Positions 1 through 16,865 of a DNA stretch of 64,000 nt are shown here, in pieces. Within the stretch, counting starts at the first letter, position 1, and each line of letters starts with the position of its first letter. The notes under the pieces were generated by a model. The model was not told where the DNA came from, searched no databases, and saw nothing but the letters and a program-made list of their open reading frames with translations. The position numbers and the translations under genes were made by a program. The stretch is from the NCBI RefSeq assembly GCF_004104415.1, contig NZ_CP034669.1; one strand, given 5' to 3'. The stretch comes from Corallococcus coralloides. Lineage in GTDB: Bacteria > Myxococcota > Myxococcia > Myxococcales > Myxococcaceae.

Positions 1-418
1 TTCGCGGCCCCGTTCTGCGTGGCCCTGGCGCGGATGCTGGGCATGGCGCGCGTGCCCTTCACGGGCGCGTCCGAGAGCGTCGCGGGATCGCCGGGCGGAG
101 GCGTCGCCGCGCGGCGGCCGCTGGTGCTCCGGGCACCGCCCTTGAGCTTCAGCTCGTAGTCGCCCAGCAGCACCTGCGAGGCCGGCGTCAGCGCCGTGGG
201 CCCCTCGATGCGCTCGCCGTCCACGAAGGTGCCGTTCTGGCTGCCTCCGTCCTCGACGTAGACGGCGCCGCCCTCCACGTAGACGCGCGCGTGCTGCCGC
301 GACACGCCGCCTTCCGTGAGGACCAGGTCATTGCCCTGCTGGCGGCCGATCTTCAGCTCGCCCGCGATCTCGTGCTCGTGCTCAGTGCCGTCAGGGTGAC
401 GGACGACCAGGGTAGGCA
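1..418 (-). CDS. FHA domain-containing protein (N-terminal part; C-terminus runs off window start)
   Basis: Own reverse translation from ATG (cat at 416-418): MPTLVVRHPDGTEHEHEIAGELKIGRQQGNDLVLTEGGVSRQHARVYVEGGAVYVEDGGSQNGTFVDGERIEGP... canonical FHA motifs (GR..xxD..L, SRxHA, GSxNGT). Not in ORF track because it is truncated by the window edge. Confidence 0.75.
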
Positions 419-426
419 TGGGCGCG

Positions 427-2196
427 TCAGTCCTCGCGGAAGATGCTCATGTTCACGGGGATGCCCTTGCGCTGGAGCTCGTCGTAGAACTTCGGGACGA
501 AGCCCGACGCCACGTAGCGGCCACGCACCTTGTGGTCTTCCGTGAAGCCGTCCTGCTTGTAATAGAAGATGTCCTGCAGGGTCACGATGTCGACCTCCAT
601 GCCGGACACCTCGGTGATGAAGCAGATCTTGCGGGAGCCGTCGGAGAAGCGCGTCTGCTGCACGATGAGGTGCACGGCGCTGGCGATCTGCTCGCGGATG
701 GCCTTCACCGGCAGCTCCATGCCGGACATGAGCACCATCGTCTCCAGCCGGGCAATCGCGTCGCGCGGCGTGTTCGCGTGCAGCGTGGTGAGCGAACCGT
801 CGTGGCCGGTGTTCATGGCCTGGAGCATGTCCAGCGTCTCGCCGGAGCGGCACTCGCCCACCACGATGCGGTCCGGCCTCATGCGCAGGCAGTTCTTCAC
901 CAGCTCGCGGATGGTGATGGCGCCCTTGCCTTCCAGGTTGGGCGGGCGGCTCTCCAGCTGCACCCAGTGGTCCTGCGGCAGCTGGAGCTCCGCCGCGTCC
1001 TCCACCGTGATGATGCGCTCACCCTCCGGGATGAACGAGCTGATGATGTTCAGCGTCGTCGTCTTCCCGGAGCCCGTGCCGCCGGAGATGACGATGTTGC
1101 GCCGGGCCGTCACGCACATCTCCAGGAACTCGGCCATCTGCGCGGTGACCGTCTTGTATTTGATCAGGTCCTGGATCTTCAGCGCGTCCTTCTTGAACTT
1201 GCGGATGGTGATGCAGGGGCCCTTGAGCGCCAGCGGCGGGATGATGGCGTTCACGCGGCTGCCGTCCTTGAGGCGCGCGTCCACCAGCGGGCTGGATTCG
1301 TCGATGCGGCGGCCAATGGGCGCCACGATGCGCTCGATGACGCCGAGCACCGCCTGGTTGGAGGAGAACGTCTTCTCCGACAGGGTCAGCTTGCCCTTGC
1401 GCTCGATGTAGATCTGGTTGGCGTGGTTCACCATGATCTCGCTGATCTCTTCCGACGCGAGGAACGCTTCCAGGGGCCCCAGGCCCAGCGCCTCGTTGAT
1501 GACGTCGGTGAGCAGCTCCTCCCGGTCCACGTCCCCGGGAAGCTCCTGGTCCGCCTCCATCTGGTCGATGATGTCCCGGATGGCCTTCTCGGTGCGGCGC
1601 CAGAGCTCCTCGTCCCCGAGCCGGTCCATGTCCATGCGGCGCAGGTCCAGGTACTCGATGAGCCGGTCGTGGATCTCCTTCTGGAGCCGCGAGTAGCGCT
1701 CCAGCCGGGGGTCCACCTTGCGCTTGTTCTTCGCCATGGCCGCGGCCATGGACGCGGGCATGCGGCTGGGAGCCGCGGGGGCGGGCGCGGGCTCCTCCTC
1801 CTCGTAGGGCTCCTCTTCTTCGTAGGCCTCTTCCTCGTAGGCCTCTTCGCCCTGCTCCTCGTCGTAGGCCTCTTCCGCGGGCTCTTCCTCCAGCGGCTCC
1901 ACGTTGAGGATGTAGTCGCCGATGGAGACCTGGTCGGTGGGCTTGAGCACCATGGGGCCGGCGATCTTCTTGCCGTTCACGAAGGTGCCGTTCGTGGACT
2001 TCATGTCCACGATGATGAAGCGACCGTCCTTTTCGACGATGCGGGAGTGGGTCTTGGAGACGTTCCCCTTGGCGAGCACGATGTCGTTGCCGGCAATCCG
2101 GCCGATCGTGATCTCGTTCTTGGGGTACTCCCGCTGCTCCGAACCGCCACCCTTCTCCGTCAGCGTGATGAGAAACATGGGGTGGGATGCTACCAA
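427..2196 (-). CDS. CpaF/TadA-family secretion ATPase (T2SS/T4P VirB11-like) with N-terminal FHA domain and acidic linker
   Basis: 589 aa ORF. N-term FHA (IGRIAGNDIVLAKGNVSKTHSRIV...STNGTFVNG), acidic EEAYEEE linker, then Walker A GGTGSGKTT and the rest of the CpaF/TadA-type ATPase core. Real start may be Met7 (MFLITL...). Confidence 0.9.
   Translation of the reverse strand: MVASHPMFLITLTEKGGGSEQREYPKNEITIGRIAGNDIVLAKGNVSKTHSRIVEKDGRFIIVDMKSTNGTFVNGKKIAGPMVLKPTDQVSIGDYILNVEPLEEEPAEEAYDEEQGEEAYEEEAYEEEEPYEEEEPAPAPAAPSRMPASMAAAMAKNKRKVDPRLERYSRLQKEIHDRLIEYLDLRRMDMDRLGDEELWRRTEKAIRDIIDQMEADQELPGDVDREELLTDVINEALGLGPLEAFLASEEISEIMVNHANQIYIERKGKLTLSEKTFSSNQAVLGVIERIVAPIGRRIDESSPLVDARLKDGSRVNAIIPPLALKGPCITIRKFKKDALKIQDLIKYKTVTAQMAEFLEMCVTARRNIVISGGTGSGKTTTLNIISSFIPEGERIITVEDAAELQLPQDHWVQLESRPPNLEGKGAITIRELVKNCLRMRPDRIVVGECRSGETLDMLQAMNTGHDGSLTTLHANTPRDAIARLETMVLMSGMELPVKAIREQIASAVHLIVQQTRFSDGSRKICFITEVSGMEVDIVTLQDIFYYKQDGFTEDHKVRGRYVASGFVPKFYDELQRKGIPVNMSIFRED
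1801..1875 (-). repeat. Imperfect tandem 15-nt repeat (ctcgtaggcctcttc x4) encoding the (EEAYE)n acidic linker of the ATPase
   Basis: Seen directly: ctcgtagggctcctc / cgtaggcctcttc / ctcgtaggcctcttc / gtcgtaggcctcttc on plus strand; in frame with the ATPase ORF. Confidence 0.6.
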
Positions 2197-2327
2197 GCCC
2201 TCCTACGACCTCAAAGACTCCTGCGACGCTCGCCCGCCTGCTGCCCGGAAACGGACGGGCCGGCACCCTCCCCCTCTGAAGCAGGGACGGGCCGGCCCGG
2301 ATCCGACGTGAGGGCGCTGAAGGGCCG

Positions 2328-3776
2328 TCAGTCGAAGATGTTGAAGTTCACCTCGGAGCGGGCCTGCTTGTAGCGGGTCTTCACGTCCTCGATGATGCTG
2401 CGGACCTTGTCCGAGTCCGGGTTCACGATGCGCGGGGTGACGAAGATCACCAGCTCGCGCTTGGTGGAGTCGAACGCGCGGTTCTTGAACAGCTCGCCCA
2501 CGATGGGGATGTGACCCAGGCCGGGCAGCTTCGCGACGGCCTTCTGCTCGTCGTGGCTGAACACGCCGGACAGCACGATGGTCTCACCGTGGCGCACGGT
2601 GACGTTCGTCTTGACCTTGCGGGTGCGGAAGCCGGGGATGGCGGACGAACCACCGAAGGACACGGACACGGAGGTGTCGATTTCGGAGGCCTCGGCCTCC
2701 ACTTCCGTCTGGATGTTGCCGTTGCGGTCCGCGGTGGGGCGGATGTTCAGGATGACGCCGTAGGGCTTGTACTCCACCGTGAACTGCGTGTTGGTGATGA
2801 GGGGGATGGGCACCTCGCCGCCGGCGAGGAACTCCGCCTTCTCACCGCTGGCGCACACCAGCTTGGGCTGCGCCAGCAGGCGGCCGTAACCGTCGTTGGC
2901 CTGGAAGCCGATGCTCAGGTCGGAGCCGCCCGTCGCGCCCAGCACCAGGTTGGAGATGGCGTCGCCGGAGGGGATGAGCGCCTTGTTCAGCGTCGCGGCG
3001 GCGGTCAGCGTGCCGGTGATGTCCGTGGGGTACTTGATGCCGTAGCGGTCGCGGCTGTTGCGGCGGATTTCGACGAACTGGACCTCGGAGAGGATCATCC
3101 GCTTGATGCCGACGACGAGCAGGTTCTCCACCTTCTCACCGATGGCCTTGGTGATGAGCTCCGCCTTCTGGAGGTCCTGCTGGCTCTCCACGGAGCCCTC
3201 CAGGAAGATGGTCGCGCCCACCACGTTGGCCTGCACGTTCTTCAGGCCCGCCTTCTGGAAGGCCGCGTTCAGGTTCTGGGCGACGAGCTTCTTGGCGTTG
3301 GGGGCGATCTTCACGAACGACTTCACGTTCGGGTACAGGCTCACCACCTGCTCGATGCGGTCCGCGTCCTGCGTGGTGTAGGCCTGACCGTCCAGGTAGA
3401 TGCGGTCGCCCACCATGCGCACGGACACGCCTTCGATTTCCCCCAGCAGGCGCTTGATTTCGGAGATGACCTCGTTGGGGTCCTGCTTGCGGACCGTCAC
3501 CAGGTAGCTGATGCGCTGACCGGAGGACTTCCAGACGAGCAGCGTCGTCTTGCCCTCGGCGTTACCGGTGACGAGCAGCTGGCCGGTGCCGAGCGTCTTC
3601 ACCTCGGCGATGGACGGATCTCCCAGCGCGACGCGGCTGAGGCCGGGAATGGTGAGCACCTTCTGGGTACCCACCCCCAGGCTGACGGAGCTGCCCTCCT
3701 GGGCCAGGGCGGGGGCACTGGCCACCAGGGTGACGAGGGCGCCGAGCGCCAGGGCTTGCGTGAAGCGAGTGGACAT
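2328..3776 (-). CDS. Secretin, CpaC/RcpA (Tad/Flp pilus-type) family outer-membrane channel
   Basis: 482 aa, signal peptide (ALALGALVTLVASAPALAQE), N-terminal BON/secretin-N like region, C-terminal secretin domain (…VPGFRTRKVKTNVTVRHGETIVLSGV…PGLGHIPIVGELFKNR…ELVIFVTPRIV). Confidence 0.9.
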   Translation of the reverse strand: MSTRFTQALALGALVTLVASAPALAQEGSSVSLGVGTQKVLTIPGLSRVALGDPSIAEVKTLGTGQLLVTGNAEGKTTLLVWKSSGQRISYLVTVRKQDPNEVISEIKRLLGEIEGVSVRMVGDRIYLDGQAYTTQDADRIEQVVSLYPNVKSFVKIAPNAKKLVAQNLNAAFQKAGLKNVQANVVGATIFLEGSVESQQDLQKAELITKAIGEKVENLLVVGIKRMILSEVQFVEIRRNSRDRYGIKYPTDITGTLTAAATLNKALIPSGDAISNLVLGATGGSDLSIGFQANDGYGRLLAQPKLVCASGEKAEFLAGGEVPIPLITNTQFTVEYKPYGVILNIRPTADRNGNIQTEVEAEASEIDTSVSVSFGGSSAIPGFRTRKVKTNVTVRHGETIVLSGVFSHDEQKAVAKLPGLGHIPIVGELFKNRAFDSTKRELVIFVTPRIVNPDSDKVRSIIEDVKTRYKQARSEVNFNIFD

Positions 3777-3822
3777 CGTGTGAATCCCCTTCTTGCGTGC
3801 GCGCGCCCGGCCTGACGGCGCG

Positions 3823-4359
3823 CTATCCCAGATGTTGTTGCTGCCACCACATGGCCCAGAAAGTCCCGAGCGCGATGGAGACGCCGTAGGGGATGTGTCG
3901 CGCGGGAGCGGGCGAGGTTTCCTCGCGCATCCATTTCATCCGCACCGCCCAGCGACGGGCCACCGCCGCCAGCGTGTCCCAGACGGCCCCCTGCCACAGC
4001 AGCGTGACGATGGCCTGCAGCGCGCCCGTCAGCGAGATGAAGGCCGCCGCGGCGAGCACCGTGGGAAAGCCCAGCACGCAGCCCACGCCCGCCATCAGCT
4101 TGACGTCACCCCACCCCATGCGCCCGCGCAGCGCACCCGGCACCAGCAGCGCCGCGAGTCCCGCGCCCGCCAGAAGCCCGCTCACCACCCCCGACTCCAG
4201 CCCGCCCACCCCTTCGGACACACCGCGCACCCCGAGCCCCAGCACGATGAGCGGATAGGTCACGGCGTTCGGGATGAGCCGGCGCAGCACGTCGGTCACC
4301 ACCGCAATCACCAGGGCCACTCCCAGAATCGTCCACAGCGCGAGCTGAACAGGTGTCAT
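3823..4359 (-). CDS. Prepilin peptidase, A24 family (CpaA/TadV-like)
   Basis: 178 aa polytopic membrane protein; conserved D…IP motif (VVTDVLRRLIPN) and GxGDVKL motif (MGWGDVKLMAGVG) typical of type IV prepilin peptidases. Confidence 0.85.
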   Translation of the reverse strand: MTPVQLALWTILGVALVIAVVTDVLRRLIPNAVTYPLIVLGLGVRGVSEGVGGLESGVVSGLLAGAGLAALLVPGALRGRMGWGDVKLMAGVGCVLGFPTVLAAAAFISLTGALQAIVTLLWQGAVWDTLAAVARRWAVRMKWMREETSPAPARHIPYGVSIALGTFWAMWWQQQHLG

Positions 4360-4471
4360 TCGGCACCTGCTCCCATGGGGAGCAGGCGACCCCCATCAAA
4401 CAATGGAGGCCCTGAGGCCGTCAATTCCTGAACAAGGCCATCGCACCGTGGGGCCCCGCGTCATGCCGGCA

Positions 4472-5329
4472 TCAGTGGATGACGAGGCGGATCTTCTCAC
4501 TGCAGATGAAGTACTCGTCCCCGTCCTCGACCTTGCGGCGCTTGATGCGCTGCTTGTTGAACCAGGTCCCGTTCGAGGAGCCGAGGTCCTCGATGTAGAA
4601 GTCGCCGCCGTCGCGGGCGATGACGGCGTGCTCGCGCGACACCTTGCCGGAGTTGATGACGAAGTCGCAGTGCTTGCCGCGGCCGATGACGTAGCGGTCC
4701 TTGACGATCTTCTCCTGCTCGCCGGACTCCAGGACGAGATAGAGCGAGGCGCCCTCCTCCTCGTCCGGCTCCTCCATCGGCTCTTCTTCTTCGGCCTCCT
4801 CGGGAGGCTCGTCCTGCATGTCGTCGAGCGGCGGCTCCTCCTGCTCCGGCAGGGGCTCCTCCTCGTCCTCGATCATGTCGTCCGCGGAGGGCGGGGGCGG
4901 CTCGTTCTTGCCCTTGATGAGCCGCTCCAGTTCCGCGGCCGTCTCCAGGACGCGCTCGGCGACCTCGCGGCGCACCGGATCATTGTCCAGCCCGTTGGAG
5001 GACGGGCGCTCCTCCGCGTTGCGCGCGGCGGGACGCGCGGCCGGCGCGGGGGCGAGGACTGGAGGACCGCCCTTGGCAGCGGCGGCCGGCGTTGGCGAGG
5101 CGGAGGGACGCGCCGCCGGGGCGGGCGCGGGTGACGGCACCGCCGCCACGGCGGGCTCGCCCTTCGTCTTCACGTCAATGAAGCCGTTGAGACGCGCGAA
5201 CATGAACAGCGCCTGGTTGATGAGCGCGTCGCGATCCGACCCCATCTGCTGGGCCATCTCTTCGTACGTCTCCCACAGGTGCTCGGCGATGCCGACCTTG
5301 CGTGCGGGACGGGAGTTCTGATCGATCAT
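4472..5329 (-). CDS. FHA domain-containing protein (C-terminal FHA, central acidic Pro/Glu-rich disordered region)
   Basis: 285 aa; C-terminal FHA (YVIGRGKHCDFVINSGKVSREHAVIARDGGDFYIEDLGSSNGTWFN); long A/P-rich and E/D-rich low-complexity middle. Confidence 0.8.
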   Translation of the reverse strand: MIDQNSRPARKVGIAEHLWETYEEMAQQMGSDRDALINQALFMFARLNGFIDVKTKGEPAVAAVPSPAPAPAARPSASPTPAAAAKGGPPVLAPAPAARPAARNAEERPSSNGLDNDPVRREVAERVLETAAELERLIKGKNEPPPPSADDMIEDEEEPLPEQEEPPLDDMQDEPPEEAEEEEPMEEPDEEEGASLYLVLESGEQEKIVKDRYVIGRGKHCDFVINSGKVSREHAVIARDGGDFYIEDLGSSNGTWFNKQRIKRRKVEDGDEYFICSEKIRLVIH

Positions 5330-5392
5330 CGGTCTTGGCTCGGGAAATGCTGGACGTGGGGAACGATAGCAGAGCCGGCTGGGCGCGCCCAG

Positions 5393-7546
5393 TTACTGGA
5401 ACGCCCGGAGATACGTGAGGTTGTCCAGGTTGTCGGTGATGGACTCCAGGGCCACCTGGAGCACGCCGTCCGCTGAAGGATAGGCGACGTAGGCCAGGCT
5501 GGCGCCGTCCACGTCCGTGGCCACCACGGAAGCAGGCAGGGTGTAGACCGCCAGGTTGCTCGACTGACTGGTGTCCACGCCGAAGACGTAGCGGCGGAAG
5601 CGCGGCAGCAGCGTCACCACGTAGCGGTCACCCGCCACCAGCCGGCTCCCCGCCCCGATGGTGGGCGTCAGCGTGAGCGTCAACGGCGCGGGCGCGAAGG
5701 TGGTGGGCGACTTGGGCGGCTCCAGGCCCAGGTCGAAGCCGTCCGGGTGGTAGTAGTAGTCCAGGACGCTGGAGACCGTGTACGCCTCGCCGACGTTGAG
5801 CCGCTGCAGGTACGTGTCGCCGGTCTCCGCGCCGGAATAGAGCACGAAGGGCTTCACGTTCGGGCCCGCGCGCACGGAGAACAACGGGTACGACGCGCAG
5901 GGCTCCGCCGCGTCGGCGACCGCCGGGTCCGACAGGTCCGGGTAGAGCCGCGTGAGGCCATTGCCCTGGTCCTCCAGGCGCAGGATGGGGATGACCGCCG
6001 CGCAGGCACCCGCGTTGTTCGCCAGGATGATGGAGTCGCCGGGAATCACGCCGCGGGCCTCCACCAGGGGCGTCTCGATGAGGAGCGCGGGGTCCTCCTG
6101 GGTCAGGTCGCGAGAGAGTCCGACCAGTCCGGGCAGCACGCCCTGGAAGACGAAGCGGTACGTCCCGCCAGGCACCGAGCCGTTGCAGAGGAACGCCGTG
6201 GCGTTGGTCGTATCCGTCACCTGGGGGCAGCCGGGCTGCTCCACGAGGATGCCCTGGAACTGATCCACGCGCGCCACCTCGTTGTTGTCACGCAGCTCCG
6301 CGGACACCGACGAGTTCAGCGCCTTGTTTTCGGAGTCGCGGTCCAGGTTGAACGCGCGCCGCTCGTCCGCGCGGAACAGGGTGATCCGCCCGTCGGACGA
6401 CGGCATGATGCCCAGGAGCGGAATGGGGGTGAGGTAGGGCACGCTGTCCGCCCGGAGCTCGCGGACCTCCAGGCCCGAGCGCAGCGTGAGGCCCGTGGGC
6501 AGACCCGCGGACGGCCGCAGGGTCAGCATGGGCGCGCCGGTGACGTCGCGGGCGAGCACCGGCGCCGCGGACGGCGCCAGCGGATCCGGCCCATTGTCGA
6601 GCGCGATGACGCCCTCGCAGTCAGACGAGTTGCACGTCAGCTCATCCAGCACCACGAACACGTAGCGGCCCGCGGGCTCGGTCACGGTGTCCGACACCTT
6701 GTAGCTGGGGTGCGTGGTCACGAGCCGCGCCGGGATGTCCACCAGGTCCGCGTAGTTGGGCACCGCGTAGGGCGCCGGCCGCGGCCGCTTGTAGGGGATC
6801 TCCACGGAGGCCCCGTCCGCGACGACGCGCACCAGCCGGCTGGTGCCGGACACGTTGCGGATGGCGACCACCAGCGAGTCCGCCACGCCGGCCCGCGCGG
6901 GCAGCGTGACCATGGACATCACCGTGTCCGCCGGCTTGAGGCAGAAGACGGGCAGCGCGGGAGGGAGCCCGGCGGCGTCGAAGCCCTCCGGGCCGGGCAG
7001 GTCCTGGCGCATCACCACCCCGCCGCCGAAGGGGCCGCAGAGCTGCTCGGCGGCCTCCGGGCGCGTCTGGAGCGCGTAGTACAGGACGCTCGGCTCGCCC
7101 TCCGCCACCGGGGCGTGCGCGGCGAAGGCGGTGATGAGCTGGCCGGTCGCCAGGCGCGTCACCTCGTTGAGGCGCGCGCGGTCCGCGGCCACCACGGAGA
7201 TGCCGCGTCCGCCGGAGCTGCGCGCGTAGATGTACGGGCCGGACACGTCCTCGCCCTTGTCGTTGTAGCCCACGTCGCGGGTGAGCGAGTCGGGCCGCGC
7301 GATGACGGGGATGGCCAACGGCTCCAGCGGGTTCGGCGCGGGGATGAACTCACGCGGCGCGCGCGTCAGGTCCAGCACGCGCAGCTCATCCCGGTCCTGC
7401 GAGGTGACGAAGACGAGCTGGTTGGAGAGCACCACGTCGTACGTGCCGGACAGACCGGCGGCGCCCGCGGTGCTGGTGGTGTCGGAGCAGGCGAGCGCGA
7501 GGCTCGCGCCGCTCAGCAACAGGGCAGCAAGAAAGCCGCGCTTCAA
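5393..7546 (-). CDS. Large lipoprotein of unknown function (about 717 aa)
   Basis: Track ORF 5393..7564 (GTG). A TTG at 7544-7546 gives a textbook lipoprotein signal, MKRGFLAALLLSGASLALAC, and sits 4 nt after the upstream gene stop (tgaccttgaag). No recognisable catalytic motifs; no homology call possible by eye. Confidence 0.6.
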   Translation of the reverse strand: MKRGFLAALLLSGASLALACSDTTSTAGAAGLSGTYDVVLSNQLVFVTSQDRDELRVLDLTRAPREFIPAPNPLEPLAIPVIARPDSLTRDVGYNDKGEDVSGPYIYARSSGGRGISVVAADRARLNEVTRLATGQLITAFAAHAPVAEGEPSVLYYALQTRPEAAEQLCGPFGGGVVMRQDLPGPEGFDAAGLPPALPVFCLKPADTVMSMVTLPARAGVADSLVVAIRNVSGTSRLVRVVADGASVEIPYKRPRPAPYAVPNYADLVDIPARLVTTHPSYKVSDTVTEPAGRYVFVVLDELTCNSSDCEGVIALDNGPDPLAPSAAPVLARDVTGAPMLTLRPSAGLPTGLTLRSGLEVRELRADSVPYLTPIPLLGIMPSSDGRITLFRADERRAFNLDRDSENKALNSSVSAELRDNNEVARVDQFQGILVEQPGCPQVTDTTNATAFLCNGSVPGGTYRFVFQGVLPGLVGLSRDLTQEDPALLIETPLVEARGVIPGDSIILANNAGACAAVIPILRLEDQGNGLTRLYPDLSDPAVADAAEPCASYPLFSVRAGPNVKPFVLYSGAETGDTYLQRLNVGEAYTVSSVLDYYYHPDGFDLGLEPPKSPTTFAPAPLTLTLTPTIGAGSRLVAGDRYVVTLLPRFRRYVFGVDTSQSSNLAVYTLPASVVATDVDGASLAYVAYPSADGVLQVALESITDNLDNLTYLRAFQ

Positions 7547-7548
7547 GG

Positions 7549-9078
7549 TCAGTTCTCCTGGCACACGCTGGTGCCCTGGTTCGGATCGCGCTGCTGCTGG
7601 ATGCCCAGCTTCGCCACCAGCCGCGCGTCCTGGGGACGCGCCAGGTCGGGGAGGTCCACGATGGCCACCTGGCTGTCACCGAAGTTGGTCACGAACAGCC
7701 GCGCCGCGTTCGTCCCGGCGGGGTTGTCCACCGTCAGCCCGAAGGCCTGCGACGGGTTGCTGGTCTGGTTGAGTTCGTTGACGAGCGGCACCTGCGCCAC
7801 GACCTGCCCGAGCGCCTCGTCGTAGAGGGACAACGCGCTGTCGCCGGTGCTCGTCACCGCGATGATGTGGGTGTCCGCGTTGGACGTGCCCGGCGTCCGC
7901 GAGAGGATCTGCATGTCGCTCACGCCGTCGGGCATGGGCACCGCGGAGACCACGCGGAAGAAGGGCTGGGTGGCGGGGGTGCCCGGCACCGCGTCGTATT
8001 CGAAGTCCAGGGTGAGCAGCGTGTCCGGGCCGCGCGCCAGCAGGTACAGCCGCTCGCGCACGAGGTTCGGACGCGCCGCCAGCTCCTCCGCCGTCACCGG
8101 ACGGGGCACCACGCGCGCCGCGCGCGCCTCGCGGATGCGGTACTCCGACTGCAGCGAGGGCTCGAGGATGGTGCCGGGGTCGTTCTTGTCCACCAGCCGC
8201 AGCACGAAGTTGCCGCCCACGGTGCCGTTGATGCCGGCCACGAAGTTGCGGCCCGTCACGTAGAGGTAGCCCGCGCCCACCGTCACCGAATCCGAGCCGC
8301 CGTAGAGGTAGCCCTCGGGTGACAGCGAGATGAAGCCCAGCGTGTCGCGCGTGGGGTTGTCCAGCTTCACCGTGGCCAGGTAGTTCTCGAAGTTGCTGCT
8401 GGACTTCGCGGGCGAGTCCGCCGCCTCCGAGTGCGTCACGTACAGGTTGCCGCTCGCCTCATCCACCGTCACGCCGATGGGCGACGGAGCGCGGGGCAGG
8501 CCCGCGCGGCCCTCGTCACTGAGGGACGACGGGATGTCGTCGGAGAGAGACAGCGCGCCGTCGCGGCAGTCCACGCCGCCCTGCACGCAGGTGAGCACCG
8601 GGGCGCCATTGGCCTCCAGGCTCACGTCCACCGCGTTCAGGTTGTTGCCCTCCGCGCGCGAGGGCACGAACAGGCGCGGCAGCCCCGTGGCGGGGTTCAC
8701 CCACATGCCCAGCTCACCCGCGAAGCTGCGGATCTGCACGAGCGACTCGTCCGCGGACGCCAGGTCCTCGAAGGCGAGCGCGGAGTCCGGGAGCACGCTG
8801 CCCAGGTGGGGCACCATGACAGCCTGCCCATCCACCTGCGTGCTCAGCGTGTCCAGGTTCAGCGCCACGACCGAGCCGGAGTCGTAGCAGTTGTCGAAGT
8901 TGGCGTTCGCAACGAAGAGATAGCCGTTGCTCACGGATGGCCCGCCCGCCGCCGGAGGGCGCCAGAACGCCACCCCGCTGGGGTACACGAAGCGGGTGGA
9001 CGGAGGCGGGTTCGGATCGGATTCAATCGAACACGCCCCGAGGAGCAGCAGCGCGGGGGTCAGGAAGTAGAGGCGCAT
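7549..9078 (-). CDS. Lipoprotein of unknown function (about 509 aa)
   Basis: Track ORF 7549..9309 has a junk Arg/Pro-rich N-extension. ATG at 9076-9078 (checked) gives MRLYFLTPALLLLGACSIESD (lipobox LLGAC). No recognisable catalytic motifs; no homology call possible by eye. Confidence 0.6.
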   Translation of the reverse strand: MRLYFLTPALLLLGACSIESDPNPPPSTRFVYPSGVAFWRPPAAGGPSVSNGYLFVANANFDNCYDSGSVVALNLDTLSTQVDGQAVMVPHLGSVLPDSALAFEDLASADESLVQIRSFAGELGMWVNPATGLPRLFVPSRAEGNNLNAVDVSLEANGAPVLTCVQGGVDCRDGALSLSDDIPSSLSDEGRAGLPRAPSPIGVTVDEASGNLYVTHSEAADSPAKSSSNFENYLATVKLDNPTRDTLGFISLSPEGYLYGGSDSVTVGAGYLYVTGRNFVAGINGTVGGNFVLRLVDKNDPGTILEPSLQSEYRIREARAARVVPRPVTAEELAARPNLVRERLYLLARGPDTLLTLDFEYDAVPGTPATQPFFRVVSAVPMPDGVSDMQILSRTPGTSNADTHIIAVTSTGDSALSLYDEALGQVVAQVPLVNELNQTSNPSQAFGLTVDNPAGTNAARLFVTNFGDSQVAIVDLPDLARPQDARLVAKLGIQQQRDPNQGTSVCQEN

Positions 9079-9244
9079 CAGAGGGGGGCGGAGTGTAGGA
9101 ACGCGGCCCTGCCCCGGGCAACTGAATAGGGCTGCCACTATTCCCGGCCGCCCGCCCGCCGACATCCGCCCCCATCCATAGGGCGTGCGCCGCTCCCCTG
9201 GAGGGGGAACGGGCACGCTCCGGCGGTGAAGCGGCGGCCGGGCA

Positions 9245-11353
9245 TCAGGCCGCGGCGAGTTCGGCCTGGATCTTGGAAAAGTCCGCCACCTGGTTGAACA
9301 GGGCGCCAATCTCCGTGAGGAACCGGATGCGGTTCTCCCGCAGGTCCTTGTCCTCGGCCATCACCATCACCTTGTCGAAGAAGGTGTCCACGGCGGGCTT
9401 CAGGCCGGTGATCTCCTTGAGCGCGCCGGCGAAGTCGTCCGCGCGCACATGCTCACCCACCTTGTCGCGCGCCTGGGTGAAGGCGGTGTGGAGGTTCTTC
9501 TCCGGCTCGTCGGTGAAGCGCTGCGGGTTGGTCTGCCCGCCCGCCACGTCCTTGCCCTGCTTCTCCACGATGTTGACCACGCGCTTGAACGCCGCCGCCA
9601 GCGGCTGGAAGTCCGAGTGGCCCACCAGCAGGCTCAGGGCCTCCAGGCGCTTCTTCGCGGCCACCAGGTCGTCGAAGCCCACGGCCAGCACCGCCTCCAC
9701 GACGTCCGTGCGGTGCTGCTCGCCCCACAGCGCCTTGAGGCGGCCGCGGAAGAACTCCAGCACCTGCTCGCGCGGGGCCGCTTCACCCGGCTTGCGCTTC
9801 ACGTTGGCCAGCTTGGGGGCCAGCAGGCGCAGCGCCTCATCCACCGCGGCGGACAGGCTGAAGCGGTAGCCGCGCCCCAGCACGATGCGGATGATGGACA
9901 GGCACGCGCGGCGCAGCGCGAACGGATCCGCCGCGCCGGACGGCGCCTTGCCAATGGCGAAGATGCCGCACAGCGAGTCCAGCCGGTCCGCCAGGCCGAT
10001 GAGCGCGCCCGCGTCCTGGGACGGCAGCGCGTCCTCGGCGCCGCGGGGCAGGTAGTGCTCGAAGATGGCCAGCGCCACCGCGTCGGGCTCGCCGCCCGCT
10101 CTCGCGTACTCGCGGCCCATCACGCCCTGGAGCTCCGGGAACTCGCCCACCATGCCGGTGACCAGGTCCGCCTTGGACAGCGTGGCGGCGCGCTCCACCG
10201 TGGCCGCCTCCCCTGCCCTGTCCGTGGCCTGGGCCAGCCAGCCCGCCAGCGCGCGGAAGCGCTCCACCTTCTCCAGGTACGTGCCCAGCTGGCCCTGCCA
10301 CACCACGCGGCCCAGCTTCTCCACGCGGTCCGCCAGCGGCGTGCGGCGGTCCTCGTCGAAGAAGAAGCGCCCGTCCGCGAGCCGCGCCGCCAGCACGCGC
10401 TGGTAGCCGCGCAGGGACAGCTGCTCGTCGCGCACCGGCGTGTTGGACACGGCGATGAAGCGCGGCAGCAGCTTCCCCTTCGCGTCCGTCAGCGAGAAGT
10501 AGCGCTGGTGGCTCTTCATCTCCTGCACCAGGACTTCCGGGGGCAGGTCCAGGTGGCGCTCCTCGAAGCTGCCCACCACGGGGCTCGGCAGCTCCACCAG
10601 GTTCGTCACTTGGTCCACCAGGCCCTCGTCCTCCAGCAGCCGAGCGCCCGCCGAAGTGGCCGCGGCGTTCACCTTGCGCAGCAGCTCCGCGCGGCGCTTC
10701 GCGATGTCCGGCACCACGTGCGCCTTCTCCAGCGCGGCCTCGTAGTCCGAGGGCGCCTTCAGCGCGATGGCGCCCGGCGCGAGGAAGCGGTGGCCGTAGG
10801 TCGTGCGGCCCGCCTTCACGTCGCCCAGCACCACCGGCAGCTCCGTGTCGCCCAGGAGCGCCACCAGCCACTGCACCGGGCGCGCGAAGGCCGTGTCCAC
10901 GTCACCCCAGCGCATGGACTTCTTGAAGTTGATGCCGTGCACGGCCGCGTGCACCGCGTCCTGGAGGATGGCCTCCGCCGGACGGCCCTTCTCCTCCACG
11001 CGCGCGGAGACGTACTCGCCCTTGGCCGTGGTGGTGCGCCCGAGCGCGTCCACGGACAGCTTGAGGCTTTCGGCGAACTTCTCCGCCGCCTTGGTGGGCT
11101 TGCCCTGCGCGTCGAAGGCGGCCTTGGCGCTGGGGCCCAGCACCTCCTTCGTGATGTCCTCGCCCGCGTCCGCCACGCCGCGGACCAGGACGGCCAGCCG
11201 GCGCGGCGTGCCGAACGTGCGCACCTCGCCGTGCTTCAGGCGGGCGTCGGCCATGCGCTCGGTGAGCACGCGCTTCAGGTCCTCCAGCGCGGGGATGATG
11301 AACGACGCCGGGAGTTCCTCGGCACCGACCTCCAGCAGCAGATCACGCGCCAC
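9245..11353 (-). CDS. glyS: Glycine--tRNA ligase beta subunit
   Basis: 702 aa; [18 protein letters not shown]… characteristic GlyS N-terminus and length; overlaps glyQ stop by 11 nt as usual. Confidence 0.93.
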
Positions 11354-12335
11354 GAGCCACCTCCGCCTTCTCCTTCTTCTCCACCGGCTTGTTGAGCTGC
11401 ACCGTCTTCCAGTAGTCGCTGGCGGGCTTGCCCTCCAGCACCGGCGGCTGCTCGCCCACGGTCCACGGCGTCTTCGTCAGCGGGTAGCCCAGCCGCTCGC
11501 GCATCTGGAGGTAGCCTTCCGCGCACAGGCGCGCGTTGTCACGCACGCGCTTGATGAAGTTGGCGCGCTCGGTGACGGAGATGGCGCCGCGCGCGTCCAG
11601 CAGGTTGAACGTGTGCGAGCACTTCAGCGCGTAGTCGTACGCGGGCATCGGCAGGTGGCGCTCGATGAGCCGCTTGCACTCCTTCTCGTACGCGTCGAAC
11701 ATCGAGAAGAGCATCTGCGGGTCGGACTCGTGGAGGGCGTACTTGCTCATCTCCACTTCGTTCGCGTGGAAGATTTCACGGTACTTCACGCCCTTGACCC
11801 ACTCGATGTCGTAGACGTTCTCCACGTTCTGCAGGTTCATCATCAGGCGCTCGAGCCCGTACGTCAGCTCCGCGGACACGGGGCGGCAGTCGAAGCCGCC
11901 GCACTGCTGGAAGTAGGTGAACTGCGTCACCTCCATCCCGTCGCACCACACCTCCCAGCCCAGGCCCCAGGCGCCCAGCGTGGGGGATTCCCAGTCGTCC
12001 TCGACGAAGCGGATGTCGTGCTCCAGCGGATCCATGCCCACCTTCCGCAGCGACTCCAGGTACAGCTCCTGGACGTTCTTGGGCGCGGGCTTGAGGATGA
12101 CCTGGAACTGGTGGTGCTGGAACAGGCGGTTCGGGTTCTCACCGAAGCGGCCGTCGGCGGGCCGCCGCGAGGGCTGCACATACGCGACGTTCCAGGGCTC
12201 GGGACCGAGCGCGCGCAGGAACGTGTAGGGGGCCATCGTGCCCGCGCCGACTTCCGTGTCGTACGACTGGGTGACGATGCATCCCTGGTCGGCCCAGTGC
12301 TTCTGGAGCGTGAGGATGAGGTCCTGGAAATACAT
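11343..12335 (-). CDS. glyQ: Glycine--tRNA ligase alpha subunit
   Basis: 330 aa; [19 protein letters not shown]…[23 protein letters not shown] highly conserved GlyQ sequence. Confidence 0.95.
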
Positions 12336-12424: not shown

Positions 12425-14698
12425 TCAGTTCGAGTAGGCCGGGAGGTCGGCCAGTCGAATCTGCAGCTTCGTCACTTCGCCGGGACGGATGGGAGCGGAC
12501 AACAGCTTGCTCGTACCGCCGGGGTCCTGCGGGTCCACCACGCGCAAGCGGTACGTCCCGATGGGCAGGGGGAACTTGATCAACGGGGACGTGCCCAGCT
12601 GCGTGGCGCCGTCGAACACCGCCGCGTTCTTCGGCACGGTGTAGAGCGTCAGCCACCCCAGGCCCGCCTTCGCCGCGCCCTTCGAGGTGGTCGTGTCGAG
12701 CACCTCCGGGTTCTCCACCTGGGTGACGGTGGTGACGGGCTCCGGCGGCCGCTCCGAGGGCTCGGGCTTCGCGGGGCGCGGTTCCACCTTCGCCACCGCG
12801 GGCGCGTCCGGCGTGGCGGCCGGTTTCGTCTTGCGGCCTCCCTTGCCGGCGGGGGCCTTCTTCGTGTCCGCGGCGGTCGCTGCCACCACCGGCTCGGGCG
12901 TGGGCGGCGCCTCCACCGGCGCCGGCTCGGGCTCGGGCTCGGGGGTCGTCTTCTGGACGAAGCCCGGCGGAGGACCGGAGGGCTTCGGCGGCCACTGCCC
13001 GTTCGCGGCGGGGTCCACGGGCGGAGCCGGATCCAGCTCCGCCTTCACCCACTGCTTCGCGGAGTCGAACGCCGGCATGAACACGCGGCGCACGGGTTCG
13101 AGCGTCGCCATGTAGGCCACGCCGCCCAGGATGAGGAGCAGGAACAACCGCATGCCCCAGCCGGAGCCCTCGCGAGCGGGCGGGGCCACGGGGGGCGCTT
13201 CAACGGACTCCGCTTCCTCCACCTGGCGTGAGGGCCGCGAGGCGCCGCGCACCGGACGGGCCTTGAAGCGCTGGGTCTGGAGCTCGCTGGGCGGATCCAT
13301 CAGCCCGTCGGACTCGGCCGCGTCGCGGGCCTCGGTGGGCTCGGGCCGCGCGCTGGGACGGGCCCGCGAGGGCCGCACGGCGTCAGCGGGAGGACGGATG
13401 ACCCGGGGAACGGGCGTCCCGTCAGGCCCCGAGGGCCGCTGCGCGCGCGGCGTCACGGCGGGCGTGTTGAGGCGAGAGGCGCGGGCCTCCACGGCTTCAT
13501 TGGCGGGGCGCGGGGTGGCGCGGGGCGCGGGCGCCGTGGACTCGGCCGCGGTGCGACGGACGGGCGTGGGCTTGAAGGACGCCGCGACGTCCGCGGGCGG
13601 GGCCTCCGCGTGCGGCGACTTCACCTGCGCGGTGGCGGCGGAGGCGGCCTGCTCACTGCCCTCCTCCACCTGGAGCGCACCGGCGGCTTCGCTGACGCGG
13701 GCGTCCTCGGCGCGGCTGGCCAGCTCCAGGAGCGTGCGCGTCTTCTGGCGCTTCTCCTCGAAGAGCTCGCCCATGACGGCGGTCATCTGGTCTTCGTCGA
13801 ACAGCTCGGAGCCCAGCGTGGCCTCGATGGCGCGCGCCATCTCCCGGCAGGTCCCGAAGCGCTGGGTGGCATCGCGCGACAGCGCCTTGAGCACCACCGC
13901 TTCCAGGGCCTCCGGCACGGCCGCGTTGAGCGAGCGCGGCGCGGGGATGTCCCCGTCCACGATCTGCATCATCACGGCGGCTTCGCCGGGGGCGTTGAAC
14001 AGGCGCTGTCCCGCCAGCAGCTCGTGGAGCATCACGCCCGTGGAGAACTGGTCGCTGCGGCCATCCAGGTCCTTGTTGCGCACCTGCTCCGGGGACATGT
14101 ACCCGCTGGTCCCCTTCACGGTGCCCACCTGCGTGCGGCCCAGCTTGCCGCGCGCCTTGGCGATGCCGAAGTCGATCACCTTCACGACGCCGTCGTAGGT
14201 GAGCATCACGTTCTTCGGGGACACGTCGCGGTGCACCACCGCCACCGGGCGGCCCGACGGATCCATGAAGTGGTGGGCGTAGTGCAGGCCCAGGCACGTG
14301 TCGCGAATCACGCGCGCGCTGAAGCCCAGCGGCAGCGCGTACTTGCGCCGCTCCGCCATCTTCACCACCTGCTCCAGGTTCTGGCCGGGCAGGAACTCCA
14401 TGGCGAGGTACAGCTCGCCGTCCTCCTCACCCAGGTCGAACACCTGTCCGATGTTCGCGTGCGAGAAGGCCGCGGTGATGCGCGCCTCATCCAGGAACAT
14501 CTTGACGAACTGGTCGTCCTTCTTGATGTCGGGGAGGATCTGCTTCACCGCCACGAACTTGCGGAAGCCACCGGGGCCGGAGGTGTACGCGAGGAACAGC
14601 TCCGCCATCCCGCCCATCGAGAGTCGGGTGAGGATCTCGTACTTTCCAATGCGCCGCCCCCGGTCGGGATCGTCTCCGGCGACTCCCTGCGTGCTCAT
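12425..14698 (-). CDS. Ser/Thr protein kinase with TM segment and C-terminal PEGA domain
   Basis: Hanks kinase motifs (VAVK, HRDVSPKNVML, DFGIAK, GTSGYMSPEQ). Pro-rich linker, TM LFLLLILGGVAYMATL, C-terminal PEGA-like beta domain (LGWLTLYTVPKNAAVFDG…YRLRVV). Track ORF extends to 14935; ATG at 14696-14698 (MSTQGVAGDD…) is the likely real start. Confidence 0.9.
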   Translation of the reverse strand: MSTQGVAGDDPDRGRRIGKYEILTRLSMGGMAELFLAYTSGPGGFRKFVAVKQILPDIKKDDQFVKMFLDEARITAAFSHANIGQVFDLGEEDGELYLAMEFLPGQNLEQVVKMAERRKYALPLGFSARVIRDTCLGLHYAHHFMDPSGRPVAVVHRDVSPKNVMLTYDGVVKVIDFGIAKARGKLGRTQVGTVKGTSGYMSPEQVRNKDLDGRSDQFSTGVMLHELLAGQRLFNAPGEAAVMMQIVDGDIPAPRSLNAAVPEALEAVVLKALSRDATQRFGTCREMARAIEATLGSELFDEDQMTAVMGELFEEKRQKTRTLLELASRAEDARVSEAAGALQVEEGSEQAASAATAQVKSPHAEAPPADVAASFKPTPVRRTAAESTAPAPRATPRPANEAVEARASRLNTPAVTPRAQRPSGPDGTPVPRVIRPPADAVRPSRARPSARPEPTEARDAAESDGLMDPPSELQTQRFKARPVRGASRPSRQVEEAESVEAPPVAPPAREGSGWGMRLFLLLILGGVAYMATLEPVRRVFMPAFDSAKQWVKAELDPAPPVDPAANGQWPPKPSGPPPGFVQKTTPEPEPEPAPVEAPPTPEPVVAATAADTKKAPAGKGGRKTKPAATPDAPAVAKVEPRPAKPEPSERPPEPVTTVTQVENPEVLDTTTSKGAAKAGLGWLTLYTVPKNAAVFDGATQLGTSPLIKFPLPIGTYRLRVVDPQDPGGTSKLLSAPIRPGEVTKLQIRLADLPAYSN

Positions 14699-14790
14699 GC
14701 GGGGGCGGATGTTACCCGCCGAACCCTCCCAGGTCGATGACCGTCTTTCCAGACGGTCCCTCCCGGCCTCCGGAGTCCGGTGAAAGCGGG

Positions 14791-15579
14791 TTAGGCGCCG
14801 AACCGCCGCCGCCGCACGTCGAGCATCCAGGCCTCGAGCGCGGCCACGGCCGCCGGTGGTGGCTCCAGAGGCAACACGGAGGCCGCGTCCGCCGCGTCGA
14901 GCACCGCGAAGGCGCGCGTCACCTCCCGCTGCCACGCTTCGCTGAGCGCGTCGGTCAGCTCGATGCGCTCACCGCTCCGCTTGCGCTCCACCAGCGTGCG
15001 GGCTTCGCCAAAGCCATACGGCTCCAGCAGGACGGTGACGTCCGTCTCCACCTCGCCCGTGCGCAGCGCATGCGTCCCGGTGAGCGTGGTGCGCAGCACG
15101 TACAGCAACTTCTTCACGGAGCGGAATCCGCTCTTCTCCCACTCGCGCAACTGCCCCTGCGCGAAGCCGCGGTAGTGCCGGTGGATGCGCCGCGACAGCA
15201 CGGCCCGCACCAGCGGCCGCAGCGCCTCCAGCTCCGGCAGGGCCCGCACGGTGATGGCCCCCAGCACCCGCTCGATGTAGTTGCCGTTGCCCTGGAGGAT
15301 GCCCAGCAGCACGGGCTGCAGCTCGTTGGACGAGTAGTCCACCTCCACGCCCTCCAGCACCTCCAGCCGCTCCGCCGGCACGTGCCGGGGCTGGAGGCCA
15401 AGCAGCGCGGCGGTGTGCGCGATGTGGATGGCCTTGAGGTCCAGGTCGCTGTCATGCGACGGGAAACCGTACGCATGCGCGCCGGACAGCGAGATGACCA
15501 GGTGCTCGCGCTGGAGGGACTCCGCGTCCAGCACGCGGTCCGCCATGTGCTCCTGATGCTCCGTCACCCTGCCCTTCAT
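14791..15579 (-). CDS. Pol-beta superfamily nucleotidyltransferase, RlaP/YcgL-like
   Basis: 262 aa; N-terminal GS/GA…hDhDh NTase motif (LSGAHAYGFPSHDSDLDLKAIH); size and motif fit PF10127-type minimal NTases. Start ATG overlaps upstream stop (ATGA). Confidence 0.6.
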   Translation of the reverse strand: MKGRVTEHQEHMADRVLDAESLQREHLVISLSGAHAYGFPSHDSDLDLKAIHIAHTAALLGLQPRHVPAERLEVLEGVEVDYSSNELQPVLLGILQGNGNYIERVLGAITVRALPELEALRPLVRAVLSRRIHRHYRGFAQGQLREWEKSGFRSVKKLLYVLRTTLTGTHALRTGEVETDVTVLLEPYGFGEARTLVERKRSGERIELTDALSEAWQREVTRAFAVLDAADAASVLPLEPPPAAVAALEAWMLDVRRRRFGA

Positions 15580-16865
15580 TCCGTCCCTCCTTCCAGCGCC
15601 GGAGCCTCCGGCGCGTCACGGCCCAGCGGGCCGGGCGTCTTCAAGACCCAGCGCCGCGCGACCTCGTCCCCCACGCGCCGCAGCAGCCGGTCCGCGCGGG
15701 CGTAGTCCGGATGCTCCGGCAGCCGGCTCTCGCGGTGCGCGGCCTCCAACGCCGGAGCCATGGCCTCGGCGTCGCGCAGCACGTCCTCCAGTGGCACCTG
15801 TCCGCCCTTGATGTCGAGCAGCCGCGCCTTCAACGCCCCCGTCGCCTCGAAGGAGGGCACACCGTCGCGCAGCCAGCCGGTCGCCAGCGCCACCAGCCGC
15901 AGCAGGTTGTAGGCGTTCTTCGGCCGCAGCTCCCGGGCGGACGGAGGACGCTGACCGCCGCCGCGCGCGTACGCCGTGAGCGCCGCGAAGTCGTTCGACG
16001 CGAGCAGCCCCTGGTCCCAGAGCGAGCGGTAGAGCTGCTTGACGTACGTCTTCGCCGCGAGCACCGCGTCCTCGGGCGTGGGCGCGGCACGAGGCGACAC
16101 GGCGGACAGGCGACGGGCCACTTCGTCCAGGTCCGGCGTGGGCTCCTCGCACAGCCACGCGAGGAGCAGGTCGCGGTGCTCGGCCAGCCGCTGGCTGCGG
16201 GTGAGCTTGTCGAGCTGGCTCATGGCGTAGCGCCCGAAGCTGCCGAAGATGGCCTTGGAGACGAACGCCTCGCGCGCCTCCAGCACCCACGTGCCCAGCT
16301 CGTCCACCGCCGTCGCGCCGGGGACGAAGAGGGTCTCCAGCGTGTTCGGATCCGCGCGCAGCGCCTGCTCCACCGTCTTGCGGACCTCCCAGTACGTGGT
16401 GCTGCCATCCGCGCTCACCAGGTCCTGCGGCGGCTGCCCCAGGCCGAGCGTCCACGGAAGCGGCAGCGCGAACACACCGCGCACGTCCACGTCCGAGCGC
16501 TCATCCGCGAGCCCCCACGCATGACTGCCCACGCGCGTCTCCAGCACCACGCACGGACGCAGCGCGCCCCAGGCCGCCTCGCGCCGCTGGGCGAACTGCA
16601 CCTGTCCCGCGCGCCGGGGCACCAGCTCGTCGCGCGCGAACCACACCTCGCCCACGCCGACGATCTGCACGTCGAAGCCGCCGTCATGCGCGCGCACCAC
16701 GCGGCCCACCACGCCCTGGGGGATGCGGCGTCCCCCGGACGCCACGCGCTCCACGCGGGTCGTGACCTCGGTGCCATGCGGCAGGGGCACCGACAGCCGG
16801 TCGATCTGCTCCAGCCCCCGGACACGCGCCGGAGCGGAGGAAGAAGCCTCACGGGTGTCACTCAT
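15576..16865 (-). CDS. Nucleotidyltransferase domain protein (RlaP-like N-terminal NTase plus about 250 aa C-terminal extension)
   Basis: NTase motif VGSHAWGLADERSDVDVRGVF. Track ORF to 16916; ATG at 16863-16865 (MSDTREASS…) preferred. Confidence 0.6.
   Translation of the reverse strand: MSDTREASSSAPARVRGLEQIDRLSVPLPHGTEVTTRVERVASGGRRIPQGVVGRVVRAHDGGFDVQIVGVGEVWFARDELVPRRAGQVQFAQRREAAWGALRPCVVLETRVGSHAWGLADERSDVDVRGVFALPLPWTLGLGQPPQDLVSADGSTTYWEVRKTVEQALRADPNTLETLFVPGATAVDELGTWVLEAREAFVSKAIFGSFGRYAMSQLDKLTRSQRLAEHRDLLLAWLCEEPTPDLDEVARRLSAVSPRAAPTPEDAVLAAKTYVKQLYRSLWDQGLLASNDFAALTAYARGGGQRPPSARELRPKNAYNLLRLVALATGWLRDGVPSFEATGALKARLLDIKGGQVPLEDVLRDAEAMAPALEAAHRESRLPEHPDYARADRLLRRVGDEVARRWVLKTPGPLGRDAPEAPALEGGTE

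Follow-up and report, generated by a model that had tools for sequence, protein, structure and literature searches.

What is encoded by the minus-strand gene cluster that opens this 64-kb stretch of the Corallococcus coralloides chromosome (assembly GCF_004104415.1; hereafter the window, that is, the whole stretch of 64,000 nucleotides): an ordinary Tad pilus, a toxin-exporting module, or part of the Kil machine known from Myxococcus xanthus? The evidence points to the last of these, and with a probability of roughly 0.93 we assign the region to kil cluster 1 of C. coralloides, the positional orthologue of MXAN_3102-3108 and part of the Kil Tad-like pilus machine. A co-directional series of minus-strand genes fills the first 12.3 kb of the window, across which G+C is 62-74%; the cluster spans window positions 1-9309 on the minus strand, downstream of glyQS, and contains the following genes.

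3..419, minus strand: kilD (MXAN_3108 orthologue), N-terminal 139 codons only, FHA domain (E=8e-18), running off the window start
427..2178, minus strand: kilF (MXAN_3107 orthologue), FHA-CpaF/TadA-type ATPase of 583 amino acids (aa), Pfam FHA and T2SSE
2328..3776, minus strand: kilC (MXAN_3106 orthologue), short secretin of 482 aa, Pfam T2SS-T3SS_pil_N, BON and Secretin
3823..4359, minus strand: kilA (MXAN_3105 orthologue), short A24 prepilin peptidase of 178 aa, Pfam Peptidase_A24
4472..5329, minus strand: MXAN_3104 orthologue of 285 aa, with a CopG-like N-terminus, an acidic/proline-rich linker and a C-terminal FHA domain (E=1e-19)
5393..7546, minus strand: Lip2 (MXAN_3103 orthologue), outer-membrane (OM) lipoprotein of 717 aa with a beta-propeller, no Pfam hit, alternative start of the open reading frame (ORF) at 7564
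7549..9078, minus strand: Lip1 (MXAN_3102 orthologue), lipoprotein of 509 aa, YncE-like seven-bladed beta-propeller, no Pfam hit

In content and order this list corresponds, gene for gene, to MXAN_3102-3108 as described by Seef et al. (2021, eLife 10:e72409): two predicted OM lipoproteins, an FHA protein, KilA, KilC, KilF and KilD. A preliminary description of this DNA, made from its letters alone, had reported a co-directional minus-strand cluster with an FHA-fused ATPase, a secretin, an A24 peptidase, two further FHA proteins and two lipoproteins, and had taken it for the orthologous first half of a Kil-like machine. All of these components are present, and a Pfam search of the window ORFs recovered FHA, T2SSE, Secretin and Peptidase_A24 in the cluster. 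Seef et al. describe KilC as a short secretin without the N0 domain, KilF as a CpaF ATPase with an N-terminal FHA domain, and KilD as a cytoplasmic FHA/TPR protein. The C. coralloides KilC likewise appears to lack N0, judging from its Pfam domain list; its gene adjoins that of the ATPase, and kilA lies upstream of it.

In KilF, Pfam matches of the ORF at 427-2196 place the FHA domain at residues 29-93 (E=3e-17) and T2SSE at residues 237-515 (E=1e-65); the top NCBIfam match is a TadA-family ATPase model, and a Walker A motif, GGTGSGKTT, is readable. The start at 2196 adopted in the preliminary description had to be moved 18 nt further in. Most probably, translation begins at the ATG at 2178 (MFLITL...): a 583-aa product is annotated in a near-identical strain (Logan contig L001, which matches 13 kb of the window at 99.57% identity), and the complementation primer for M. 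xanthus kilF opens with the MFLITL codons. An exact look-up of the 589-aa ORF accordingly returned zero matches, the real start being six codons further in. The FHA gene that is cut by the window edge, as had been described, runs from 419 down to 3. Read in L001, the full KilD is a protein of 737 aa with two FHA domains, and its gene is followed by polA. KilD thus retains the multi-FHA feature and the position immediately downstream of kilF.

This genome also appears in a published survey. Herrou et al. (2025, Nat Commun 16:4425) followed 22 genes, both kil and tip, and the available part of their Supplementary Data 1 contains a row for GCF_004104415.1, Corallococcus coralloides, with the tip genes and the following entries.

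KilA: WP_120619328, gene index 4692
KilC: WP_128797878, gene index 4691
KilF: WP_128797877, gene index 4690
KilD: WP_128797876, gene index 4689
KilB: WP_120622540, gene index 4611
KilG: WP_120622539, gene index 4610
KilH: WP_120622538, gene index 4609
KilP: WP_128795931, gene index 2247

The tabulated KilA and KilC accessions are those of the window's own proteins, KilA being identical to WP_120619328.1 and KilC to WP_128797878.1 (QAT86256.1); four of the six window proteins are exact matches to C. coralloides entries within QAT86256-QAT86261 (9.59-Mb chromosome, GCF_004104415.1). The expectation that the locus was probably unannotated therefore holds for GenBank, where the names are generic, and fails for the literature, where these accessions are listed in that row as KilA, KilC, KilF and KilD. 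The cluster is already known: descriptions of the Kil system date back to 2021, a comparative survey has found Tad-like (kil) homologues throughout the order Myxococcales, and KilA, KilC, KilF and KilD of this genome stand in a published table. The same row bears out the prediction of a second locus with platform and pilin genes elsewhere in the genome, KilB/G/H being placed at 4609-4611, about 78 genes from cluster 1 on the polA side, and KilP at 2247. As far as the consulted part of the table goes, the two kil clusters are about 80-90 genes apart in three Corallococcus genomes and about 1,500 genes apart in M. xanthus DK1622 (3014-3017 versus 4528-4530), so that the split is much narrower in Corallococcus.

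Independently of the published table, orthology is supported by synteny. Two genes of the same strand precede the cluster.

9245..11353, minus strand: glyS (Pfam), upstream neighbour of the cluster
11343..12335, minus strand: glyQ (Pfam)

A KilF scan of species-representative genomes yielded 80 loci in Myxococcaceae and Archangiaceae (Corallococcus, Myxococcus, Pyxidicoccus, Citreicoccus, Hyalangium, Archangium, Cystobacter and Vitiosangium, as well as many metagenome-assembled genomes, MAGs). In nearly every locus that was long enough, that of M. xanthus included, tblastn recovered the order glyQ-glyS-Lip1-Lip2-FHA-kilA-kilC-kilF-kilD-polA; the exceptions were three MAGs that lack kilA, together with some partial matches. 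The M. xanthus locus used for comparison (strain AM003, L015) was tied to the MXAN numbers by mapping published deletion and complementation primers: those of Seef et al. for MXAN_3106 (kilC), MXAN_3107 (kilF) and MXAN_3108 (NG-kilD) land exactly at the starts or ends of the genes that best match the window proteins, and the kilF primers bracket the orthologue. The seven genes share order, strand and flanks (glyQS upstream, polA downstream) with M. xanthus Kil cluster 1, as well as the FHA-fused CpaF ATPase, the short secretin with pil_N, BON and Secretin domains, the short A24 peptidase and the multi-FHA KilD. Identity to M. xanthus is 90% for KilF, 88% for KilC, 74% for KilA and 56% for KilD, the last measured against the gene whose start fits the NG-kilD primer; the accessory genes are more diverged (FHA protein 70%, Lip1 46%, Lip2 42%), and the neighbours GlyS and PolA are 85% and 73% identical. 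Orthology to the kil genes, as proposed at the outset, is thus supported by gene order and content, by primer mapping, by identities of 42-90% and by the published accession table. The Corallococcus system differs from that of M. xanthus in genus and, according to the tabulated gene indices, in having cluster 2 closer to cluster 1, and it is known from its genes alone.

The secretin, the ATPase and the A24 peptidase all belong to the generic Tad/Cpa repertoire, being homologous to the CpaC/RcpA-type secretin, CpaF/TadA-family ATPase and CpaA/TadV-type peptidase of Caulobacter crescentus Cpa and Aggregatibacter Tad, which would suit an ordinary Tad/Flp adhesion pilus locus with its pilin and platform genes just outside the window. 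However, classical Cpa/Tad loci are contiguous, include flp and tadB/C (and TadZ) and carry no FHA domains, whereas here pilin and platform are encoded off-locus, the ATPase is fused to an FHA domain, and the cluster adds three more FHA domains and a pair of propeller lipoproteins. In agreement with the preliminary description, T2SSF (TadB/C), Flp and TadZ domains were found in none of the sizeable ORFs of the whole 64-kb window, ORFs of less than about 60 aa lying outside the scan; a small Flp pilin gene of that size class may be present in the window outside the cluster, and the intergenic gaps within the cluster, 46-166 nt, leave little or no space for one. The remainder of the window consists of housekeeping genes, including an rpoBC-sized ORF pair, ribosomal protein genes, tRNAs and gcvPH. 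Beyond the window start, L001 extends 7.7 kb and encodes the rest of kilD, then polA, then unrelated genes, with no flp or tadBC among them, so the contiguity of a classical Tad locus is found neither in the scanned window ORFs nor in this flank. Pilin or tadBC genes immediately beyond the window start were what the preliminary description had named as grounds for refuting its interpretation, which thus survives this check. On the other side lie glyS, glyQ and a protein kinase gene described below; the platform genes are about 78 genes away in the row of Supplementary Data 1, and, according to Seef et al., the FHA domain on the ATPase and the presence of four FHA domains are Kil-specific departures from Tad. 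An ordinary Tad locus, already refuted by the flanking sequence, is extremely improbable.

A different machine might be imagined from the lack of a pilin gene in the locus, namely, a module resembling a type II secretion system that exports toxins through the secretin and builds no pilus. Seef et al. left toxin secretion, or the recruitment of another delivery system, open, and deletion of the pilin KilK reduced killing only partly in their experiments, both of which favour such a module. Herrou et al., however, provided direct evidence that a KilP pilus is polymerised at the prey contact site in a Kil-dependent manner and that tip minor pilins are needed for killing, and a KilP orthologue is tabulated for the present genome, which makes export without a pilus very unlikely. 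The phrase "secretion module without pilin" in the preliminary description remains true of the locus and is misleading for the machine, which polymerises a KilP pilus.

By analogy with M. xanthus, kil cluster 1 of C. coralloides would supply KilC as the OM channel, KilF (the FHA-fused CpaF ATPase) as the cytoplasmic motor, the short prepilin peptidase KilA and the FHA/TPR scaffold KilD; in M. xanthus, some of the tip minor pilins are matured by KilA, and the sites of contact with prey are marked by KilD. Genes for KilB, for the platform KilG/H of the inner membrane, for the tip pilins and for the major pilin KilP would lie elsewhere in the genome. Prey contact would be followed by local assembly and by extension of a KilP pilus with variable tips, which, as in the M. 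xanthus experiments, might kill together with the needleless type III secretion system (T3SS*).

Herrou et al. found KilA to be required for three of four tip complexes and dispensable for KilP processing. Among the relatives examined here, kilA is missing in L055, L069 and L077, the rest of the cluster being intact, and it is reduced to a 45-codon ORF in L083 (13892-14029) and L084 (5917-6054), in which the cluster is otherwise intact. Loss of kilA in uncultured relatives agrees with its dispensability for KilP processing in M. xanthus.

The two lipoproteins are the most divergent components. Each has a signal peptide, a lipobox cysteine and further conserved cysteine residues; the lipobox cysteine is invariant across the Lip2 alignments, and that of Lip1 is invariant in a 29-sequence alignment and conserved at 90% or more in a 58-sequence alignment. 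The stop codon of Lip1 lies 2 nt ahead of the Lip2 start. The idea that the two are paralogues was rejected, as no similarity between them was detectable by BLASTP. The preliminary description credited them with no recognisable domains, and neither Pfam nor NCBIfam has a match for Lip1 or Lip2. A beta-propeller fold is nevertheless present in both, left unscored by these databases and already anticipated in the table of Seef et al., in which cd1-like and YWTD propeller signatures are recorded for the MXAN_3102/3103 lipoproteins. The seven-bladed propeller of Lip1 superposes on YncE. Escherichia coli YncE and Leptospira Lp49 are seven-bladed YVTN-type propellers with only 13-16% identity to Lip1, which differs from them in being lipidated, in having extra insertions (509 aa versus 321) and in its conserved cysteine pairs, and a shared function is not inferable from the fold. 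For Lip2, a profile search of PDB sequences found no relative, and Foldseek found no full-length structural match.

Rates of evolution set the lipoproteins apart from the core machine. In rough Nei-Gojobori estimates for seven species pairs, a method that is crude at such G+C, the ratio of nonsynonymous to synonymous substitution rates is 0.33-0.88 for Lip2, 0.25-0.55 for Lip1, 0.34-0.59 for KilD and 0.08-0.22 for KilC and KilF. The lipoproteins are the fastest-evolving genes of the block, Lip2 being the fastest of all. Conservation of Lip2 is confined to residues 41-160 and 641-717, and variability is concentrated in 160-640, a pattern consistent with a conserved anchor that bears an exposed and rapidly changing surface; alternatively, the rate may be due to relaxed constraint. 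We infer that these fast-evolving propeller lipoproteins are OM or periplasmic accessory parts of the machine.

The 285-aa FHA protein, annotated merely as "FHA domain" in Seef et al. (MXAN_3104), is most conserved in its N-terminal 50 aa (window 5150-5329), where 26 columns are invariant across 20 taxa or genera and follow a strand-helix-G-S-D-helix pattern. When a profile of N-terminal orthologues was searched against PDB sequences, the CopG repressor was the only hit, in register and with a marginal E=0.04; Pfam returned no ribbon-helix-helix match over this N-terminus. A ribbon-helix-helix module in this protein is therefore a lead, not a finding.

In total, the full cluster encodes four FHA domains, one in KilF, two in KilD and one in the 285-aa protein. 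The G-R, S-x-x-H and N-G motifs for phosphothreonine binding are kept in all three FHA modules visible in the window, as read from the translations. By this measure the four domains would retain the canonical phosphothreonine-binding residues and so read a Ser/Thr-kinase signal, of which a possible source is encoded nearby.

12425..14935, minus strand: Ser/Thr protein kinase gene (Pkinase, E=8e-35), directly upstream of glyQS

The kinase has a long proline-rich linker and a conserved C-terminal domain. Its gene, or a match to the C-terminal domain, is found directly upstream of glyQ in L001, L024, L053, L058, L062, L065 and L083 (at 4714-6780 in L083, and within the first few hundred bases of L024, L053, L058, L062 and L065), so the kinase-glyQ neighbourhood recurs in at least five or six divergent relatives, L001 being a strain of the same species. 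The Pseudomonas aeruginosa type VI secretion system (T6SS), with its kinase PpkA and FHA protein Fha1, offers a parallel: in both cases a contact-triggered envelope machine is accompanied by FHA proteins that keep the phosphothreonine-binding residues and by a nearby Ser/Thr kinase gene, and Seef et al. drew the same analogy to T6SS threonine phosphorylation. The machines are not homologous, however, and in Corallococcus the kinase gene is split from the cluster by glyQS and the arrangement is known from genes only. Our literature searches on Corallococcus Kil work or genetics, on MXAN_3102-3104 and on a link between KilD and the kinase found nothing beyond the cited Kil papers.

Adjacent to the kinase gene, two neighbouring genes at 14791-16943 (minus strand) match Pfam RlaP (PF10127, an RNA-repair-pathway nucleotidyltransferase of the polymerase-beta family); this pair has the kinase gene on one side and a PfkB sugar-kinase gene on the other.

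Conserved elements in the intergenic gaps suggest how the cluster might be transcribed.

9079..9145, minus strand: promoter-like block upstream of Lip1, recognised by conservation (GGAAT at 9144-9140; TTGCCC at 9121-9116, 18 nt, TACACT at 9097-9092; C-rich to the ATG)
5363..5373, minus strand: conserved box TCTGCTATCGT, extended -10-like, in the 63-nt spacer before the FHA gene, recognised by conservation
4395..4426, minus strand: promoter-like box upstream of kilA (AATTGACGG at 4426-4418, about 18 nt, TTTGAT at 4400-4395), from cross-genus alignment
2187..2214, minus strand: promoter-like box upstream of kilF (TTGAGG at 2214-2209, 16 nt, TAGCAT at 2192-2187), from cross-genus alignment of the kilC-kilF spacer
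2252..2305, minus strand: stable hairpin immediately behind the kilC stop codon, which may act as terminator, attenuator or stabiliser of the transcript end (minimum free energy and covariation)

The gap between the end of glyS at 9245 and the Lip1 start at 9078 is 166 nt, as the preliminary description had stated in proposing it as the likely promoter. Its distal part is unalignable between genera, and over roughly its last 70 nt there is hardly any variation among 18 loci; the proposal gains from the promoter-like block found there and loses its exclusiveness, as every other gap of the cluster also carries a conserved box. That before the FHA gene, TCTGCTATCGT, is near-invariant in 11 genera or species, with two single-base variants and an invariant core ATCGT, and the kilA box reads TTGACG-N18-TTTGAT. 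These boxes are promoter-like by conservation. The -10-like elements end 13 nt before the lip1 ATG and 8 nt before the kilF ATG, which suggests that the leaders of lip1 and kilF are very short or absent. The hairpin after kilC has a minimum free energy of -40.3 kcal/mol (z = -2.8 against shuffles), and seven of its 19 pairs covary across 17 genera or species, with changes on both sides and pairing kept.

Taken as a whole, these elements lead us to infer that the cluster is split into several transcription units and is no single operon, the leaders of some units being very short: lip1-lip2, the FHA gene, kilA-kilC ending at the hairpin, and kilF-kilD would each be preceded by a conserved promoter-like box. 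A terminator scan found none in the intergenic gaps and gave three hits, all intracoding and fewer than expected by chance; a sigma-54 scan had no hit in any intergenic gap of the cluster, and a TGGCA-N11-TTGC string in the glyS-Lip1 gap was rejected as a sigma-54 site for its wrong spacing. The Rfam scan of the window detected tRNAs only, with no known riboswitch or leader in the cluster.

In Corallococcus sp. RDP092CA (L007), a 1.35-kb insertion lies between the glyS stop and the conserved block upstream of Lip1. It is flanked by the inverted repeats GGGCGTGAGAAAAAAT ... ATTTTTTCTCACGCCC and resembles an insertion sequence; the lip1-proximal block is intact.

Several points weigh against the assignment to a functional Kil cluster 1 or limit its reach. 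Identity, synteny and domain content, and the lack of platform genes in the window and of pilin in the scanned ORFs, are read directly from the DNA, whereas predation by Kil in Corallococcus is an extrapolation from M. xanthus. The presence of cluster 2 in GCF_004104415.1 rests on the row of the published table; a search with an 89-aa block of M. xanthus KilH from the supermatrix of Seef et al. recovered short metagenomic fragments only and no full-length Corallococcus protein. A sigma-70 scan found no promoter-like site in the cluster gaps, the conserved boxes falling under its threshold. The consulted strain and plasmid lists of Seef et al. contain constructs for MXAN_3105-3108 and cluster 2 only, with no deletions of MXAN_3102-3104; since these three are not among the genes deleted according to those lists, their membership in the machine rests on position. 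Finally, because the whole kinase-glyQS-...-polA block is syntenic, adjacency argues only weakly for the lipoproteins and the kinase, and the position of the kinase proves nothing by itself.

The last two points lend themselves to another interpretation of part of the locus, in which the lipoproteins, the ribbon-helix-helix-like FHA protein and the kinase are conserved bystanders in a stable glyQS-polA housekeeping region. With the entire kinase-glyQ-glyS-...-polA order kept, synteny cannot separate members from bystanders, and the columns of the table of Herrou et al. that were consulted (KilA, B, C, D, F, G, H, P and the Tip genes) do not include the MXAN_3102-3104 orthologues. Set against this, the Lip1-Lip2 pair lies between glyS and the FHA gene at every depth examined, down to the most distant homologues looked up (27-30% identity), whereas kilA itself can vanish; MXAN3103 was detected by liquid chromatography-tandem mass spectrometry in the M. 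xanthus OM fraction together with the secretin MXAN3106 (KilC) and the CpaB homologue MXAN4652 (KilB); and the table of Seef et al. records a Bradymonas homologue for MXAN_3102. Lip2, moreover, belongs to a small family: 1.84 billion proteins include 431 representatives of it, those members that bear a name are exclusively myxobacterial, and wherever the genomic context of a Lip2 homologue was examined, it was the glyS-FHA-gene block. That these genes are mere bystanders is possible, though we consider it doubtful.

If kil cluster 1 is instead taken to include them, the uncharacterised genes and the kinase could be the part of the Kil machine still missing, the one that senses prey contact and exerts control, a suggestion so tentative that we regard it as unlikely. 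The two OM propeller lipoproteins would then associate with the N0-less secretin and detect the surface of the prey or a disturbance of the envelope, phosphothreonine marks for the four FHA domains would come from the neighbouring Ser/Thr kinase, and the ribbon-helix-helix-like FHA protein might couple the signal to DNA binding at the conserved kil intergenic boxes.

As a discovery, the cluster matters little; what value is left lies in drawing attention to those genes of the system that have been studied least, namely, the orthologues of MXAN_3102-3104 and the kinase next to them. What is added here to the published record, namely, the lipoprotein folds, evolutionary rates, CopG-like N-terminus, conserved boxes, post-kilC hairpin and kinase neighbourhood, should be taken as leads. 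How prey contact triggers local Kil assembly is a question left by the M. xanthus papers, and the propeller folds, the OM location, the rate of Lip2, the CopG-like N-terminus, the boxes and the hairpin are targets for addressing it.

Two further observations concern the sequences used for comparison. A contig labelled "Comamonas sp. KCTC 72670" (L014, BNCN01000010.1) contains a complete myxobacterial block in full synteny (GlyQ 92%, KilF 87% and KilC 87% identical); probably the assembly bears a wrong label or includes contaminating DNA from a Myxococcus-like genome. Ten contigs of about 8.8 kb from independent draft assemblies (8.76-9.0 kb; L002, L004, L005, L009-L012, L017, L018 and L022) all start inside kilA and end just after polA. 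We considered a repeat or mobile unit as the reason and rejected it. With kilA being the stretch of highest local G+C (0.72-0.76), we prefer an assembly effect, and a drop of Illumina coverage at kilA is the likely cause of the recurrent breaks.

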